Sequence record: OZ346219.1
Source of the DNA: a phage
Length of the DNA stretch: 64,000 nucleotides
Reading direction: 5' to 3' (one strand)
Within the stretch, counting starts at the first letter, position 1, and every line of letters begins with the position of its first letter. The notes beneath the pieces were generated by a model that was given only the letters and a program-made list of their open reading frames with translations, searched no databases and was not told where the DNA came from. Positions 17,155 through 23,180 of the stretch are shown piece after piece. The position numbers and the translations under genes are program-made.

Positions 17155-19398
17155 TTACAGCTTGCAAGATGAGCACTCGCTAGCGTCTTCCGTACCATCT
17201 GCACCATCACGCACGTTAGCGTAATACAGTGTCTTGAGGCCGTAATATTGAGCAAACAACATATCATCTAAAACATCAGCAATATCGACTTTACCAGTCT
17301 TATAAGTGCTTGGATCGTAGGATGTGTTGGAACTAATCGCCTGATCTACAAACTTCTGCATGATCGCTGCCAGTGTCAGATAAGGCTTGTTACCTTTCTT
17401 GATCAGTGTCCAAAGCAGGTCAATAACATCAGCATTATTCTCTACGTTCGGAATGACCTGATTAAATTGCCCTTCTTTCGATCCTTTAACCGATACAATC
17501 CCGCGAGGCGGTTCAATACCGTTTGTGCTGTTAGATACCTGAGAAGACGACTCACACGGCATCAGCGCCGAAAGTGTACTGTTACGAATGCCATATTTTT
17601 TCAGGTCTTCGCGCAGTTCTTCCCAATCCATCTCATACACCGGATCAACCAGTTCATCTACTGTCTTTTTGTACCAGTCGATAGGCAGTTCACCGCGACC
17701 ATAGCGTGTTTCGTGCATCAGTTCGCAAGCACCCTTCTCTTTAGCCAGTCGCACACTAGCCTTAATCAGAGCATATTGCAAGCGTTCAAACGTTTTATGC
17801 GTAAACTCGTTAGCGTCTTCATATGTGAAGAAATTATCTGCTAGATATGATGCAAAGTTAGTAACACCAACACCCAGAGAGCGACGTTTTTTGGCTGTCA
17901 GAGCTTGTTCTACAGGATAATCCTGATAATCTAACAGGTTGTCAAGTGCACGCACCATAACCATAGCAATGCGTTCTACTTCTTCCATATTTTCGATATC
18001 GAAATTACCTAAAACATATGCTGCCAAAGTACATAGGCTAATTTCTGAATCATCACGACCCATCGGTTTAGTAGGCAGTGCAATTTCACAACACAGGTTA
18101 GATTGTTTAATCGGTGCTACATTACGAATAAACGCCCCGTGATTGTTCATGTTGTCTGTGAACGTTGGGTAGATTCGACCAGTGTTAAAACGTTCAATTG
18201 CCACCGCTAAAAACAGGTCTTCGGCTTTAACACGAGTTTTACGAACACTCGGATCTTTTTCCAGTTTTTCGTAAAGTTGGCGGAAACCTTCCTCATCTCG
18301 GAAGTATAGATCCCACAACAAGCCACCCGCAACATCTGGACTAAACAGAGTAATGTAATCCCGTTTAAGGAATCGCTCTACCATCAGGTTATTAATCTGT
18401 ACGCCGTAGTCAAGATGGCGAATGCGGTTATCTTCCACGCCCTTATTGTTCTTTAACACAATCAGACTTTCAAACTCTAAATGCCACATTGGGTAATAGA
18501 GTGTCGCTGCCCCGCCACGAATACCGCCTTGTGAGCATGACTTAACGGCAGTCTGAAAATGTTTCCAGAATGGGATAACGCCAGTATGACGAACTTCACC
18601 ATGCCCGATCTTAGATCCTTCCGCGCGAATCATGCCAGCGTTGATACCGATACCAGCACGCTTGCTAATATACTTAATGATTGCATTTGCGGTTTCATTA
18701 ATACCCTGCAATGAGTCATCACTTTCGATCACCACACACGAACTAAATTGGCGTGTTGGGGTACGCACACCTGCCATAATCGGAGTAGGCAGAGAGATTT
18801 GCTTATTCGCAACCGCATTATAAAAATCAATCACATGTTCAAGTCGATTTTCGGTCTCTTCTTGATGCAAGCACATACCGATCAGCATATACGCAAATTG
18901 CGGTGTTTCGATGATTTTCTTAGTGCTGCGATCCTGAACAAGATATTTCTCTTTTAACTGCATCGCACCAGCATAGGTCATTTTAAAATCAAGTTTATGG
19001 TCGATGAATTTCTCCAGATATTCCACTTCTTCACGGGAATACTTTTGCAGAATTTCGCGATCATATTTTCCGGTTGCAATATTACGCTCAATATGGCTGT
19101 AAAAATCAATCGGTTGGAATTGACCGTATACTGATTTGCGAAGCGCGAACATTGCAAGGTTACTTGCTACATATTGATAATCGGGTGTTTCTACAGTAAT
19201 GTTATCTGCTGCGACCTTAATCAATACTTTCTGGATATCGTTGGTAGACATACCTTCTGTCAGAAGTGGTTCAACCATATCAAACAATTCATATGGATCA
19301 ACGTTATGACCTTCGGCTGCCGCTTCCAGAATTTTCATTACTTTTTCTTTTTCAAAAGGAACAGTCAGACCGGAAGACTTAACAACATTTTTAATCAT
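17155..19398 (-). CDS. nrdA: ribonucleotide reductase class Ia large subunit
   Basis: 747 aa; ATP-cone N-terminus, C-terminal CSSCKL-type Cys pair. Confidence 0.95.
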   Translation of the reverse strand: MIKNVVKSSGLTVPFEKEKVMKILEAAAEGHNVDPYELFDMVEPLLTEGMSTNDIQKVLIKVAADNITVETPDYQYVASNLAMFALRKSVYGQFQPIDFYSHIERNIATGKYDREILQKYSREEVEYLEKFIDHKLDFKMTYAGAMQLKEKYLVQDRSTKKIIETPQFAYMLIGMCLHQEETENRLEHVIDFYNAVANKQISLPTPIMAGVRTPTRQFSSCVVIESDDSLQGINETANAIIKYISKRAGIGINAGMIRAEGSKIGHGEVRHTGVIPFWKHFQTAVKSCSQGGIRGGAATLYYPMWHLEFESLIVLKNNKGVEDNRIRHLDYGVQINNLMVERFLKRDYITLFSPDVAGGLLWDLYFRDEEGFRQLYEKLEKDPSVRKTRVKAEDLFLAVAIERFNTGRIYPTFTDNMNNHGAFIRNVAPIKQSNLCCEIALPTKPMGRDDSEISLCTLAAYVLGNFDIENMEEVERIAMVMVRALDNLLDYQDYPVEQALTAKKRRSLGVGVTNFASYLADNFFTYEDANEFTHKTFERLQYALIKASVRLAKEKGACELMHETRYGRGELPIDWYKKTVDELVDPVYEMDWEELREDLKKYGIRNSTLSALMPCESSSQVSNSTNGIEPPRGIVSVKGSKEGQFNQVIPNVENNADVIDLLWTLIKKGNKPYLTLAAIMQKFVDQAISSNTSYDPSTYKTGKVDIADVLDDMLFAQYYGLKTLYYANVRDGADGTEDASECSSCKL

Positions 19399-19445
19399 AT
19401 TACCTCACTTCATATTTTAGCAGGAACAAGTTTATCCTCCATATT

Positions 19446-19461
19446 GGGGGCTTTCGCCCCC
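19446..19461 (-). other. GNRA-tetraloop hairpin GGGGGC-GAAA-GCCCCC in the td-nrdA intergenic transcript (no U-tract)
   Basis: Perfect 6-bp GC stem with GAAA loop in mRNA sense; identical element at 31693-31708 (plus strand) and a 5-bp version at 6701-6714. Confidence 0.5.
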
Positions 19462-19466
19462 TTTGT

Positions 19467-20699
19467 TTATACTGCCATTTGAGCGGTGATTGCTGGATGG
19501 CTTTGATAGTTGTGAATTTTAAAGTCTTTCGGAGTCTTTGTCAATACCTCATCTAAAGATTTAAATTCCGGCAACTCAATCGTTGGTTTATCAAACGGAA
19601 CACGGCTTAACTGTTCCATAACTTGATCAAAATGGTTTTTGTAAATGTGAGTATCTCCACCAGAGAAAATCAGTTCTCCTACCTCAAGATCACACATTTT
19701 CGCTATGATGTGAGTTAACAGCGCATAGCTGGCGACGTTAAAGGGCAAGCCTAAAAAGCTGTCTACGCTTCTCTGAAACCACATACAAGACAGTTTACCT
19801 TCATTGACGTAGAATTGCACGAAAGGATGACATACACCCAATACAGCATTATGTGTTCCTTGTACGTTCCATGAGTCAATAATGATCCGGCGATCCGTTG
19901 GATTGTTTTTAATTTGTTCAATCACGTTTTGTAACTGGTCTTCCCAAATCTTCGGGCGATAGACATATTCTTCATCGTCTTTAGTGCTCGATGTGTCTAC
20001 GTCCATACTAGCAAAGATCGTGGTATCTGGTGCTAAAATATCCCCACCCAGATAATCACTATCAAGCAGATAACCGAAATAACCATCATCTACCCATTCC
20101 TGGAATCCCCACAAGCAATATGCATCATTAACAAAATTAGATTGAGTCTTCCAGTGGTCTGCTACTAAGAATAGATTATACTCAGAATCAAACTCTTCAT
20201 AACGCATACCACGCCAGATAGCACATAAACGGTCTTCTGTTTCATTGGTTGGCGTAAAGTCTTCTACCCACGGGTGCTTAAATGTATGTGCATATTTGCT
20301 CTTAACGCGCTTAATTTTGATTTCACCGTGTGGATGAATCGGTTTGCGTCGCCATGCCATACCATACATATTGCCGACATTATAACCATTGAATCGCAAA
20401 GGATTCTTTTCTTTCATATCAAGACAGTTGCCGCGCCAAATGTCGAAGGCTTCTTCGTCAAACTTACCGCGTGTAATTTCCTGTAAGCGACGGCGGTCAA
20501 GTGATCCCTCCATAAACCATAGCAATTCGCCAATTACAGAGGCTGTAGCCATCTTTTTAGTGGTTAGTAAGGGGAAACCCTTGCTTAAATCAATTCGCAT
20601 CTCTGCGCCGAATTTAGAGAGCGTACCTACCCCCGTGCGGTCTTCACGAGGCCAGCCATTATCAAGAACATCACGCAATAGTTTCAAATATTCTTTCAT
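19467..20699 (-). CDS. td: thymidylate synthase with a large internal insertion
   Basis: N-terminal DRTGVGTLS...GFPLLTTKK and C-terminal DSFLGLPFNVASYALLTHIIAKMCDLEVGELIFSGGDTHIYKNH match ThyA; 410 aa instead of about 265-290. Confidence 0.9.
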   Translation of the reverse strand: MKEYLKLLRDVLDNGWPREDRTGVGTLSKFGAEMRIDLSKGFPLLTTKKMATASVIGELLWFMEGSLDRRRLQEITRGKFDEEAFDIWRGNCLDMKEKNPLRFNGYNVGNMYGMAWRRKPIHPHGEIKIKRVKSKYAHTFKHPWVEDFTPTNETEDRLCAIWRGMRYEEFDSEYNLFLVADHWKTQSNFVNDAYCLWGFQEWVDDGYFGYLLDSDYLGGDILAPDTTIFASMDVDTSSTKDDEEYVYRPKIWEDQLQNVIEQIKNNPTDRRIIIDSWNVQGTHNAVLGVCHPFVQFYVNEGKLSCMWFQRSVDSFLGLPFNVASYALLTHIIAKMCDLEVGELIFSGGDTHIYKNHFDQVMEQLSRVPFDKPTIELPEFKSLDEVLTKTPKDFKIHNYQSHPAITAQMAV

Positions 20700-20940
20700 C
20701 CCACTTCACCTTTTTCTTATTGATTGCTTTCTTACGCAGTTTTGCTACTGTCTCGTCAATGTCTATAAAGATAACACCACGGTCGAATACAGTAGCAGGT
20801 CTTGAGATATCGCTATTTTCTTGCACAGGAAGCCATGATGCGCTCGCTTCATCATAGAGATATTGTAAACCGTAATAATCTACGGCTACTGCGTAGTTTT
20901 CACTGGTAGCTGACCATAATTGAATAATACCGACTTTCAT
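20671..20940 (-). CDS. hypothetical protein (about 89 aa)
   Basis: Start trimmed to Met10; 3' end overlaps td start by 29 nt. Confidence 0.4.
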   Translation of the reverse strand: MKVGIIQLWSATSENYAVAVDYYGLQYLYDEASASWLPVQENSDISRPATVFDRGVIFIDIDETVAKLRKKAINKKKVKWDERIFETIA

Positions 20941-21033
20941 TATTGCTCCCGTCCACAATGTAAACACCGACTACCAGCAAACATCAAAGATTCACCACAA
21001 TGTTTGCACTCATAATCTGTCAGAATTTTCATG

Positions 21034-21603
21034 TTACGCCTTCTTACGTTCTAAAATTTGTTCGCTGATCAGGTAATTATCAAGGAAGTGATTATGTTCT
21101 TCTTTGGTTACAAAGTCAAAATATAATTCCTGAATCATTTCCTTAGAGATACCAACATCATATTCAAATGGATCGTTGACCCCTGAACGTTGAACATACG
21201 TTAACACAATACGGTCCGCAAAGTCAACCGCTTTTTCAATCAGGGAAGGTCCGCCGATAACACTTACCAAACCTTGCGTTTTCTCCAGGACTTTTAACAG
21301 ATCCTTTAATTCAATTCCAGTATACACATTAGGCTGGTCGCCGTTTTTGGCTTTCGGTGTCGGCTTGCTGGCATCGGTACTAATAACCACATTAAGACGA
21401 CCTTCCAGTGCTTTAGGCAGACTTTCAAAGGTATTACGTCCCATTACAACAGCCGCAAGTTCAACATCTCCCATAGTGCGCATTTTAAAGTTTTCCATGT
21501 CCTTTTTGATTGGACGCCCCCACGGTAAACCGCCTTTAAAACCAAAAGCCCAATTTTCATCTGACATTTTAGTGTCACCAATCGCAAATACACATTGAAT
21601 CAT
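21034..21603 (-). CDS. frd: dihydrofolate reductase
   Basis: 189 aa; DHFR-like sequence; T4 position next to td. Confidence 0.85.
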   Translation of the reverse strand: MIQCVFAIGDTKMSDENWAFGFKGGLPWGRPIKKDMENFKMRTMGDVELAAVVMGRNTFESLPKALEGRLNVVISTDASKPTPKAKNGDQPNVYTGIELKDLLKVLEKTQGLVSVIGGPSLIEKAVDFADRIVLTYVQRSGVNDPFEYDVGISKEMIQELYFDFVTKEEHNHFLDNYLISEQILERKKA

Positions 21604-21979: not shown

Positions 21980-22007
21980 ATTATACACTATTGCGTTACG
22001 CTGTCAA
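21980..22007 (-). promoter_or_regulatory. early-type promoter cassette
   Basis: TTGACA, 16 bp, TATAAT. Confidence 0.5.
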
Positions 22008-23180
22008 CTCTTTTTCAAAAGATTTTACAATATACATGATAGTGCTCAATTCAGACGGCGCTACTGTCTCTGTGTAGCCGTCCGGCATATCTTCTTTTGA
22101 GATATAGGAAGTTTTACCTTTCATAGCTTCCTTGATCTTGTTCTCTAATTCTAAGATCTTTTGACCATCTTGTAAAGTCAATTCATAAAAGATCTCGTGG
22201 TCGAACTGAGATTTACTGCTTTGTTGTTTTAGTCTTTTGGTGGTATTAGAATTTGTGACCCCAAATTTTACCCCGATTAATAAATGCTCTTTTATTAATT
22301 TTTGAATATACAGAGTTCCTTTTTTTAATGGATTGTACCCATATTTTGCACATTTAGGACATCGAGTTCCGTTCTGAAAATCAGTTATTCTAGGACTAAA
22401 TCCATGTCCATGATCACATAACAACTTTAATCTTGTATTCACACCTTTCCATTCATCTACAAAACCATTACATGTTATATTTTCTTCAACGAAAATTGGT
22501 TTAAGTCTTTCAAGATATTCTTCTTTTGAACGAGCATAGTTTTTTGCACACTTAAAACAACGTCTTCCCGCTTGAAAACTAGATATAATTGGATTAAATT
22601 CATGACCATACTCACACAATAAATTCATTTTTGTTTTGTTGCCGTTCCATTCACCAATAAATCCGTTAAAAATTATGTTCTCTTTTATGAAAATTGGTTT
22701 AAATCTTTCAAGATATTCTTCTTTTGATAAAGCATAATTATGTGCGCATTTAGGACATCGAGTCCCTCTCCGAAAATTTGTTATTGTCGGTGCAAATTCG
22801 TGTCCTTCACAACACACTAAATCTAACTTTGTGAATACACCTTTCCATTCATCTACAAAACCATTACATGTTATATTTTCTTCAACGAAAATTGGTTTAA
22901 GTCTTTCAAGATATTCTTCTTTTGATAAGGAATAATTATGTGCGCATCTAGGGCAACGTTTACCTTTTTGAAAATCTGATATTCTTGGTGTAAATTCATG
23001 TCCTTCACAACACACCAAACCCAATTTTGTTACGTTGCCTTTCCACTCACCAACAAATCCATTAAATACGATATTTTCTTTTTCGAAAATTGGTTTAAGT
23101 CTTTCGTAATATTCCGTAGGACTAATCGAGTTGTATTTTTTCTTAACCCATTCAATCTCATGAGCTTGACGTACTAACAT
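21996..23180 (-). CDS. tandem-repeat zinc-ribbon protein with T5orf172/GIY-YIG-like C-terminal domain
   Basis: Four repeats of about 62-66 aa (EEYLERLKPIF...NGFV.EWKG...CxxGHEF...RCPxCA) then GTLYIQKLIKEHLLIGVKFGVTNSNTTKRL; 85-bp exact DNA repeat at about 22438 and 22847. Confidence 0.6.
   Translation of the reverse strand: MLVRQAHEIEWVKKKYNSISPTEYYERLKPIFEKENIVFNGFVGEWKGNVTKLGLVCCEGHEFTPRISDFQKGKRCPRCAHNYSLSKEEYLERLKPIFVEENITCNGFVDEWKGVFTKLDLVCCEGHEFAPTITNFRRGTRCPKCAHNYALSKEEYLERFKPIFIKENIIFNGFIGEWNGNKTKMNLLCEYGHEFNPIISSFQAGRRCFKCAKNYARSKEEYLERLKPIFVEENITCNGFVDEWKGVNTRLKLLCDHGHGFSPRITDFQNGTRCPKCAKYGYNPLKKGTLYIQKLIKEHLLIGVKFGVTNSNTTKRLKQQSSKSQFDHEIFYELTLQDGQKILELENKIKEAMKGKTSYISKEDMPDGYTETVAPSELSTIMYIVKSFEKELTA

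Follow-up and report, generated by a model that had tools for sequence, protein, structure and literature searches.

The td gene of a Krischvirus phage encodes a thymidylate synthase (TS) into which 136 additional residues are built. This insert is probably an unspliced domain in a surface loop of the enzyme, descended from a homing-endonuclease-like module, trimmed to a helical core on a beta stalk and fixed in the genus. The gene lies in sequence record OZ346219.1, from which a stretch of 64,000 nucleotides (hereafter the window) was analyzed. The window represents a Krischvirus genome (RB49-like, T4-type coliphage). A td gene for 410 amino acids (aa) has been present in GenBank since deposition of the RB49 genome, and no published description of the RB49 Td insert or of in-frame endonuclease-like modules in TS was found in the literature.

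Position, Size and Predicted Fold of the Insert

The td nucleotide sequence is 99.5% identical to one RB49 record and 98.7% identical to the RB49 reference. Its product, Td, matches Pfam PF00303 (E = 1e-84, 284.3 bits against a cut-off of 24.3) in two stretches flanking the insert. A phmmer search of PDB sequences aligned Td with E. coli ThyA (E = 1e-68): residues 1–82 pair with ThyA 1–82, and residues 254–410 pair with ThyA 110–264 and also with T4 Td 120–286. The T4 Td match (1tis) extends up to residue 116 on the N side and resumes at residue 120 on the C side. Residues R21, R270, R271, C290, H291, R310, S311, D313, N321, H351 and Y353 of Td occupy columns of a multiple alignment that are invariant with E. 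coli ThyA, and all TS catalytic residues of the Krischvirus enzyme are intact.

The gap in the multiple alignment opens after W116-R117 and closes at D254-Q255. Between R of WR and D of DQ there are 136 residues in Krischvirus Td, 10 in E. coli ThyA and about 5 in T4 Td. Td exceeds ThyA by 146 residues, about 126 of which are found in this single block; about 18 more constitute a T4-like expansion (residues 67–113). A first-pass annotation, made from the letters of the window alone, had proposed one in-frame block of extra residues at 19946–20345. Alignment to E. coli ThyA and T4 Td bears this out: the extra length is contiguous, not a sum of small indels, and the boundaries fall within 5 nucleotides of those proposed (Table 1).

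The same annotation located the block at the variable small-domain position of TS, which is imprecise. The insert site is the loop after YGxxWR and before the DQL helix. This loop corresponds to the "insert 1" position of eukaryotic TS, and the 50-residue small-domain insert of L. casei sits before the GxxYG motif and not at the Krischvirus site. The same loop is occupied by an unrelated segment of about 37 aa in 121Q-like jumbo phages (L013, Escherichia phage 121Q td, 301–1227) and by 20–25 aa in other phage TS (P0027 and P0034 among the entries). The TS loop after YGxxWR appears to be a general hot spot of length variation.

The block is present at full length, in frame and with at least 90% aa identity in 59 of the 59 Krischvirus td genes of the phage collection, which excludes an assembly artefact. 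AlphaFold2 models the insert alone with a mean predicted local distance difference test score (pLDDT) of 93.4 and a predicted template-modeling score (pTM) of 0.85; for the whole Td these values are 94.8 and 0.92. The insert is confidently predicted to fold as a helical domain on a two-stranded beta stalk, in agreement with the earlier suggestion of a separately folding domain. The ascending strand of the stalk bears a PxPHG motif common to most insert-bearing TS, and the descending strand bears a (Y/H)V(Y/V)RPxI motif common to insert-bearing TS. The helical core contains the family-invariant W162 and W183, as well as F189 and D192, and the motif LWGFQEWVD, which is specific to TS inserts. 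In the family alignment of 139 sequences, W45, W66 and F112 (insert numbering) are invariant. A four-codon indel (SEYN, Table 1) falls in the insert loop of lowest model confidence, where the mean pLDDT of the ten-residue block is 73–74.

Relation to a Phage Module Family

Homologues were searched for by tblastn in 50,697 phage records and by exhaustive phmmer in 1.84 billion representatives. The full-length insert of a Klebsiella jumbo-phage TS found the Krischvirus td by tblastn (E = 2e-11, 34% identity over 123 aa). Searching in the opposite direction, with the window insert as query, returned jumbo-phage TS genes (E = 5e-12 to 1e-11) and a free-standing "HNH endonuclease" of a Vibrio phage (E = 4e-6). 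Direct comparison of the window insert with PHROGs gives a weak match (E = 0.5), and the link to the family is provided by the long TS inserts. Inserts of 245 aa match phrog_2081 ("HNH endonuclease") with E = 1.7e-33 over profile positions 14–216, and long inserts additionally match phrog_953, 374, 3377 and 8790, which are annotated in the same way.

One long insert matched 1152 phage records by tblastn, mostly free-standing open reading frames (ORFs) of about 175–250 aa; the free-standing modules occur in Vibrio, Pseudomonas, Bacillus, Acinetobacter and other phages. A family profile search gave 507 proteins, mostly of 175–250 aa and almost all without a Pfam domain. By Foldseek against BFVD, the window insert is similar (probability 1.00) to insert-bearing TS and to a 178-aa free-standing protein of Pseudomonas phage KIL3b, and many further matches among predicted viral structures are labeled as homing endonucleases or DNA-binding proteins. 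A search with the whole Td revealed long TS proteins of 401–418, 469–476 and 505–613 aa with extra sequence at the same loop. Exhaustive phmmer with the insert produced thirteen matches; the genuine ones among those examined are TS, mostly of 448–525 aa, in which the match lies mid-protein. The match to P0236 (782 aa) was rejected as a low-complexity repeat artefact, and P0237 (1083 aa), whose match likewise falls into 13 stretches, is presumed to be an artefact as well.

The insert thus compared is homologous to a widespread phage homing-endonuclease-like module, with the family pattern GVGYxG...WxxMxxRC...VxxxWxxFxNFxxD...LDKDxxxxxxxYSxxTCxF...N. Neither Pfam nor NCBIfam had a match for the insert or its free-standing relatives, a clean profile of free-standing members (A4) had zero matches among PDB sequences, and Foldseek against PDB returned noise only. 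Another profile (A2) was swamped by TS in the PDB sequences, as its rows contained TS flanks. A word-indexed protein search with the insert alone also found nothing; this is a limit of the index, since the full protein and the profile did succeed. The module family is absent from Pfam, NCBIfam and PDB. In this sense the domain is novel, as the first-pass annotation had suggested, but it is no orphan, being a cut-down copy of a widespread phage module.

Free-standing members occupy gene slots typical of homing endonucleases, namely primase/DNA polymerase, nrdA/nrdB and terminase/portal. In Pseudomonas phage KIL1 (L003) the module gene is flanked by the terminase large-subunit and portal genes, both annotated as two joined pieces, and these two genes may carry intervening sequences. 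One protein of 484 aa (P0122) consists of two tandem module copies. A candidate insert in a cellular thyA (P0022, from a Culicoidibacterales metagenome-assembled genome) was rejected; its contig is phage-like, with Rnl1, Rnl2, DHFR and many small ORFs.

Degeneracy and Selection in Krischvirus

By alignment, the window insert is devoid of the N-terminal beta sub-domain (G.Y.V...V.F..TG...VKD...GVGYxG) and of the C-terminal NUMOD-like part. Just the helical core and a degenerate hairpin are left of the complete module architecture. Conserved positions were defined as the 46 kept in at least 85% of free-standing members. The window insert keeps 15 of these, nearly all in the hydrophobic core, and short forms in general keep 11–15. 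Inserts of about 195 aa or more keep 23–33 of the 46, usually including L-D-K-D, Y-S, C-x-F and N-K. In the window insert the near-invariant LDKD is replaced by LDSD, Y-S by L-A, both R and C of WxxMxxRC by E, and the downstream N by D. Sister lineages have LSCDY, LTQKY or LSLVP at the LDKD position.

Complete inserts comprise 245–285 aa and stumps 127–140 aa, and inserts of intermediate size (145, 194 and 198 aa) are also found. Independent decays are seen in P0010, P0013 and P0242, and the four-codon indel segregates within the insert among Krischvirus. The short inserts are the derived state, since the long ones are colinear with the free-standing proteins. The size series is probably due to the lethality of stops and frameshifts in td, because of which decay would be realized only by in-frame trimming. 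The Krischvirus insert is probably a fixed, degenerate and possibly co-opted relic, and it is probably inactive.

The td gene of the window was compared codon by codon with eight further alleles, from Krischvirus isolates and near relatives. The ratio of non-synonymous to synonymous substitution rates (dN/dS) of the insert is 0.10–0.17 in informative comparisons; the P0002 lineage yields a dN of 0.080 and a dS of 0.60–0.76, with dN/dS of about 0.13. The td flanks of the insert have dN/dS of 0.08–0.10 (0.10 against the P0002 lineage). The frame is open in more than 35 diverged homologues, with inserts from 127 to 285 aa. These values show that the insert is under purifying selection.

Krischvirus td alleles are mosaic at about aa 258–352 of Td (19644–19928), as compared with L007, L012 and L004. 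JSE, KFS-EC and the P0002 lineage share a divergent patch over the active-site core directly downstream of the insert, with a flank dS of 0.45–0.49 and about 47 amino-acid changes; the insert dS is 0.05–0.11. The patch next to the insert represents recombination within td.

Mobility of the Long Inserts

Jumbo phages and others have complete, in-frame inserts of 245–285 aa in this TS loop. Among jumbo phages of about 350 kb, most TS genes are insert-less (121Q, PBECO4, RaK2, K64-1), and those of KP13-7, phiKp_21, UE-S1 and ph0011 are insert-bearing. Two insert-bearing enzymes, P0011 and P0012, are 88–98% identical to the insert-less 121Q TS in residues 1–90 and 80% identical in residues 301–410; next to the insert, no insert-less TS matches them at more than 51% identity. 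In P0021 the change of donor comes at another residue, after which the sequence is Krischvirus-like up to the insert.

Sixteen insert-bearing TS were compared in this way. Their insert-proximal segments (27 residues on the N side, 47 on the C side) are 57–85% identical to other insert-bearing TS in all but P0024, versus 35–55% identity to insert-less TS, and the distal TS parts belong to E. coli-like, 121Q-like, P0069-like or T4-like backbones. For Krischvirus Td, the 27 residues before the insert reach 85% identity to insert-bearing TS versus 42% to the best insert-less TS; the first 47 or so residues after it are 85% identical to insert-bearing TS versus about 51% to insert-less TS. Insert-bearing TS have GNMYG in place of G(P/R)VYG and LG(V/M/I)CHP in place of ALPPCH.

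P0024 is the exception to this flank pattern. It carries a 281-aa insert in a backbone 94–100% identical per segment to those of the insert-less P0039, P0048 and P0030, which are encoded on syntenic phage contigs. The junction is clean (...GVQWRDWRGVDQL... to ...GVGWRTWE[insert]FYTDQL...). Comparison of the P0024 and P0039 loci (L021:1560-3218 and L024:5001-5831) gives td nucleotide identity of 82–97% near the junction and about 70% in neighboring genes.

A 527-aa TS-family protein of Tenacibaculum phage PTm5 (L016:1108-2691) contains the canonical module (IWHKMMNRCYN...YGGKGV...LDKDYY...YSKETCIW) in frame between IWRDW and GAMYGVQW, the L. casei small-domain position. PTm5 represents an independent in-frame invasion of TS.

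Mosaic flanks centered on the element and presence/absence polymorphism are signatures of homing by gene conversion, and the long forms have moved, traveling between TS backbones together with approximately 25–50 flanking codons. Site-specific cutting of the empty allele by the encoded protein is putative.

Proposed Origin and Alternative Explanations

Most likely, the module entered td in frame, in a loop flanked on both sides by TS motifs of the highest conservation. Such a loop would be both a good homing target and a surface site where a stalked domain leaves the enzyme undisturbed. The long module probably spread between td backbones by gene conversion, with the flanking codons noted above, and the insert-proximal TS sequence would have traveled and co-evolved with it. 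The T4-like ancestors of Krischvirus would have lost the N-terminal beta sub-domain, the C-terminal NUMOD-like sub-domain and most conserved polar residues of the element. The remnant is fixed in Krischvirus as a folded appendage that purifying selection maintains. The family, or a partner enzyme, would cut insert-less td, and the Krischvirus copy presumably no longer cuts DNA. Its persistence could be explained by the rarity of exact in-frame loss together with co-adaptation of the neighboring TS sequence, or by a new structural or binding role.

Several observations weigh against this scheme. No insert-less Krischvirus allele occurs among the 59 genomes, so that no mobility is shown within the genus. 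Identity of the insert to P0003–P0005 is 50–56% versus 59–62% for the TS core, which represents only slightly faster divergence, and the insert dN/dS is as low as that of the enzyme core; both reflect more constraint than a functionless relic needs. The nuclease activity of the module family is itself putative. None of 111 free-standing members matches the HNH Pfam model, hhalign found no similarity between the family and the true HNH_3 domain of P0219 (probability 0.2%), and P0219 (300 aa) has this genuine NUMOD4+HNH_3 domain N-terminal to the module. Since a true nuclease domain stands in front of it in P0219, the module could be a DNA-binding domain, with mobility realized via another enzyme or via ordinary recombination. 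The PHROG label "HNH endonuclease", given to the family in more than 1100 phage records, should be treated as unverified and unsupported by direct tests, because of the missing Pfam HNH matches, the negative hhalign result and the P0219 architecture.

Other properties of the family count for a nuclease. A module followed by a NUMOD- or AP2-like tail resembles the catalytic-then-binding arrangement of homing endonucleases, the slots of free-standing members are typical of such enzymes, and the best solved-structure match of the module is the HNH enzyme PacI. The invariant polar residues D-K-D, Y and N lie on a strand-loop-strand element. Endonuclease VII has the residues D40-H41...N62 (PMC6083498), and the D-K...N spacing of the family may resemble this arrangement. 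In place of the HNH His general base with an Asn/His ligand, the family has D-K-D...N and the window insert D-S-D...D.

The constraint on the insert could also be explained by co-option. The origin would be the same as in the scheme above, and the Krischvirus copy would now be kept for a function of its own, with its loss being deleterious. We regard this as a tentative explanation, though one to be taken seriously. Candidate functions are docking of Td to DNA, to the complex synthesizing deoxynucleoside triphosphates or to the replisome, and modulation of TS activity or stability. Besides the similarity of dN/dS in the insert and in the TS core, this explanation is favored by the distribution of the reduced architecture, which is shared by T4-like lineages with TS only 52–62% identical (P0003–P0006) and is thus old. 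LWGFQEWVD, found in TS-embedded forms only, and the stalk motifs are conserved in long and short forms, and the pTM of the whole Td suggests a fixed orientation of the domain on the enzyme. However, function and partner are hypothetical only, and the need for a folded, non-aggregating appendage in an essential enzyme would also explain the constraint. Moreover, in-frame trimming is still ongoing, as seen from the four-codon indel, and other phage TS function with 5–37 unrelated residues at this loop.

A bolder form of the proposed origin, which we find somewhat unlikely, is that the inserts constitute a distinct kind of homing element, spreading as an unspliced in-frame domain. The TS–nuclease fusion (a dimer with two modules) would itself cut empty td at the YGxQWR/DQL loop, and the Krischvirus domain would be a domesticated descendant now serving the phage TS.

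It is very improbable that the Krischvirus Td–insert fusion is still an active homing endonuclease, cutting the insert-less td of co-infecting T4-like phages. The domain is conserved and confidently folded, and td alleles are mosaic immediately downstream of it. Against this, the insert is without the terminal sub-domains that all free-standing and all long forms have, it keeps only 15 of 46 family positions and carries the LDSD, L-A, E/E and D substitutions, the LDKD motif is not conserved in sister lineages, and the insert is fixed throughout the 59 genomes.

Retention of the Insert in the Protein

Removal of the segment after translation, by protein splicing of an intein, has next to nothing to recommend it beyond the setting: inteins are typically found where this insert is, in frame within a conserved motif of an essential enzyme, and the insert is likewise of endonuclease ancestry. 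Pfam scans of the whole Td, of the insert alone (E up to 10) and of nine long relatives revealed no Hint or intein domain. The junctions AWR/RKPIHPHG and RPKIWE/DQLQ have no Cys, Ser or Thr at or near either of them, the +1 residue is Asp, and there is no His-Asn at the C-terminal end; the first-pass annotation was right that intein boundary residues are lacking. The ends of the segment are predicted to pair as a beta ribbon, not to form a Hint fold.

An intervening sequence at the RNA level (a group I or group II intron, or a translational bypass) that is open in frame by chance can be given as little credit. Its background is that td of T4 holds a group I intron, elsewhere in the gene than the insert site, and that td often attracts mobile elements. 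Scanned with permissive filters on both strands, 19000–21200 matched no intron ribozyme model of Rfam, the best hit being an unrelated small nucleolar RNA model with E = 0.24. Synonymous changes in the insert exceed non-synonymous ones several-fold, the length variants differ from one another by multiples of three and are all open, and protein-family homology spans the whole segment. The earlier suggestion of an in-frame sequence removed from mRNA is not supported, given the missing intron model, the codon-level purifying selection, the frame kept open in the diverged homologues and the confident AlphaFold2 fold.

The insert is translated and kept in the protein without splicing, because intron and intein features are absent, dN/dS is low, the frame is open in all 59 genes and the fold is confident.

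Features of the Locus

The gene order at the locus is nrdA, td, a 98-aa ORF and frd (Table 1). The start of td overlaps the end of the upstream 98-aa ORF by 29 nucleotides (20671–20699), and the overlap is annotated likewise in JSE, Phi1 and other Krischvirus genomes.

A further ORF of 394 aa consists of four tandem CapR-homology/treble-clef zinc-ribbon repeats of about 65 aa (PF21817, E = 1.5e-20, 4 stretches), followed by a C-terminus that is weakly MUG113/T5orf172-like. Its orthologue has 340 aa in relative L004 and 405 aa in L005, so the number of repeats is variable. From its sequence this ORF looks like another homing-endonuclease-like gene.

Table 1. Features of the td locus in the window, with Td residue numbers where applicable.
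Feature	Coordinates	Strand	Remarks
td, ThyA-type TS gene with insert	19467..20699	minus	410 codons and stop; ORF list
N-terminal TS part, Td 1–117	20349..20699	minus	Ends GNMYGMAWR; aligns to E. coli ThyA 1–99
Insert, Td 118–253 (136 aa), probable degenerate homing-endonuclease-like module	19941..20348	minus	tblastn, Foldseek, AlphaFold2, dN/dS
Predicted ascending stalk strand, Td 119–130	20310..20345	minus	KPIHPHGEIKIK; DSSP strand 119–130 in full-length model, 3–13 in insert-only model
Predicted helical core, Td 153–204	20088..20243	minus	Helices 153–170, 181–193, 199–204 in full-length model
Four codons SEYN, Td 172–175	20175..20186	minus	Without counterpart in JSE, Phi1, G2248 and P0002 lineage; present in RB49-like isolates
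Predicted degenerate beta hairpin, Td 210–231	20007..20072	minus	Strands 210–213, 228–231; LDSD at 20055-20066
Predicted descending stalk strand, Td 245–253	19941..19967	minus	YVYRPKIWE; DSSP strand 245–253, paired with 119–130
C-terminal TS part, Td 254–410	19470..19940	minus	Begins DQLQNVIEQIKNNPTDRRIII; holds active-site Cys290; aligns to ThyA 110–264
98-aa ORF	20671-20967		Upstream of td
394-aa ORF	21996-23180	minus	Between gene 32 region and frd

Comparison with Known Systems

A mycobacteriophage DNA methylase carries the ShiLan domain, an insertion that keeps the frame and is not spliced out (Arsenault, Gosselin and Gogarten 2025, PMC11855218). Like the TS insert, it is in frame with the host gene, has no detectable intein or intron features, is predicted as a hairpin-borne protrusion, has a patchy distribution and is linked to an HNH-type endonuclease (PMC11855218). 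The two differ in that the endonuclease of ShiLan is read in a frame other than that of its host, whereas the TS module is read in the host's frame and is part of the enzyme; the ShiLan host is a dispensable methylase, whereas td encodes an essential enzyme of nucleotide synthesis; and the Krischvirus copy, unlike ShiLan, would be a decayed, fixed relic. A ShiLan-like endonuclease hidden in another frame of td was considered and rejected: no alternative-frame ORF of at least 40 aa lies within the insert, and those of 41 aa and 70 aa overlap only its upstream edge. ShiLan is the closest published analogue found.

Inteins with homing-endonuclease domains (PI-SceI type) are in-frame elements in conserved regions of essential enzymes and shrink to smaller forms over time. 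The TS insert resembles them in its endonuclease ancestry, in being in frame and in its location, and it too has degenerated to smaller forms. Unlike them, it has no Hint domain and no splice-junction nucleophiles, and it has to remain part of the finished protein.

Free-standing phage homing endonucleases and their kin are represented by I-TevI in T4 td and by mobE between nrdA and nrdB (PMC2988022, PMC2790892). Elements of this type share with the module their targets in nucleotide-metabolism genes, gene conversion with co-conversion of flanks, and the nrdA–X–nrdB slot. They are separate genes or are located in a self-splicing intron and are never part of the host protein, whereas the module insert is. 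Their catalytic families (GIY-YIG, canonical HNH) also differ from the module family. Beta-beta-alpha-metal (His-Me finger) nucleases include HNH enzymes, PacI and the T4 endonuclease VII/DHHRN family (PMC6083498).

The 50-residue insert of L. casei and the inserts of eukaryotic TS are similar to the Krischvirus insert as length variation of a surface loop that leaves the TS fold and catalysis intact. These inserts comprise 8–50 residues, and we know of no mobile-element ancestry for them. The Krischvirus insert, in contrast, comprises 136 residues (245–285 in relatives), and its homologues form an independent protein family.

In essential genes, homing endonucleases are thought to survive only if hidden in a self-splicing intron or an intein, or else by occupying a place between genes. 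The homing-endonuclease-like module in td simply stays within the essential enzyme, seated in a loop that tolerates it, and the graded series from complete (245–285 aa) to stump (127–140 aa) illustrates the course of decay where neither frameshifts nor stops are allowed. If the long forms are active, they would represent a third mode of existence of homing elements within coding sequence, and a natural, tolerated insertion of a large domain in TS, a classic drug target and model enzyme. Td of the RB49 type is an easy experimental system for these questions, testable by complementation of E. coli thyA. Among the systems compared, the insert belongs with the homing-endonuclease-derived elements, with Krischvirus as a decayed member and the wider family as the more interesting lead.

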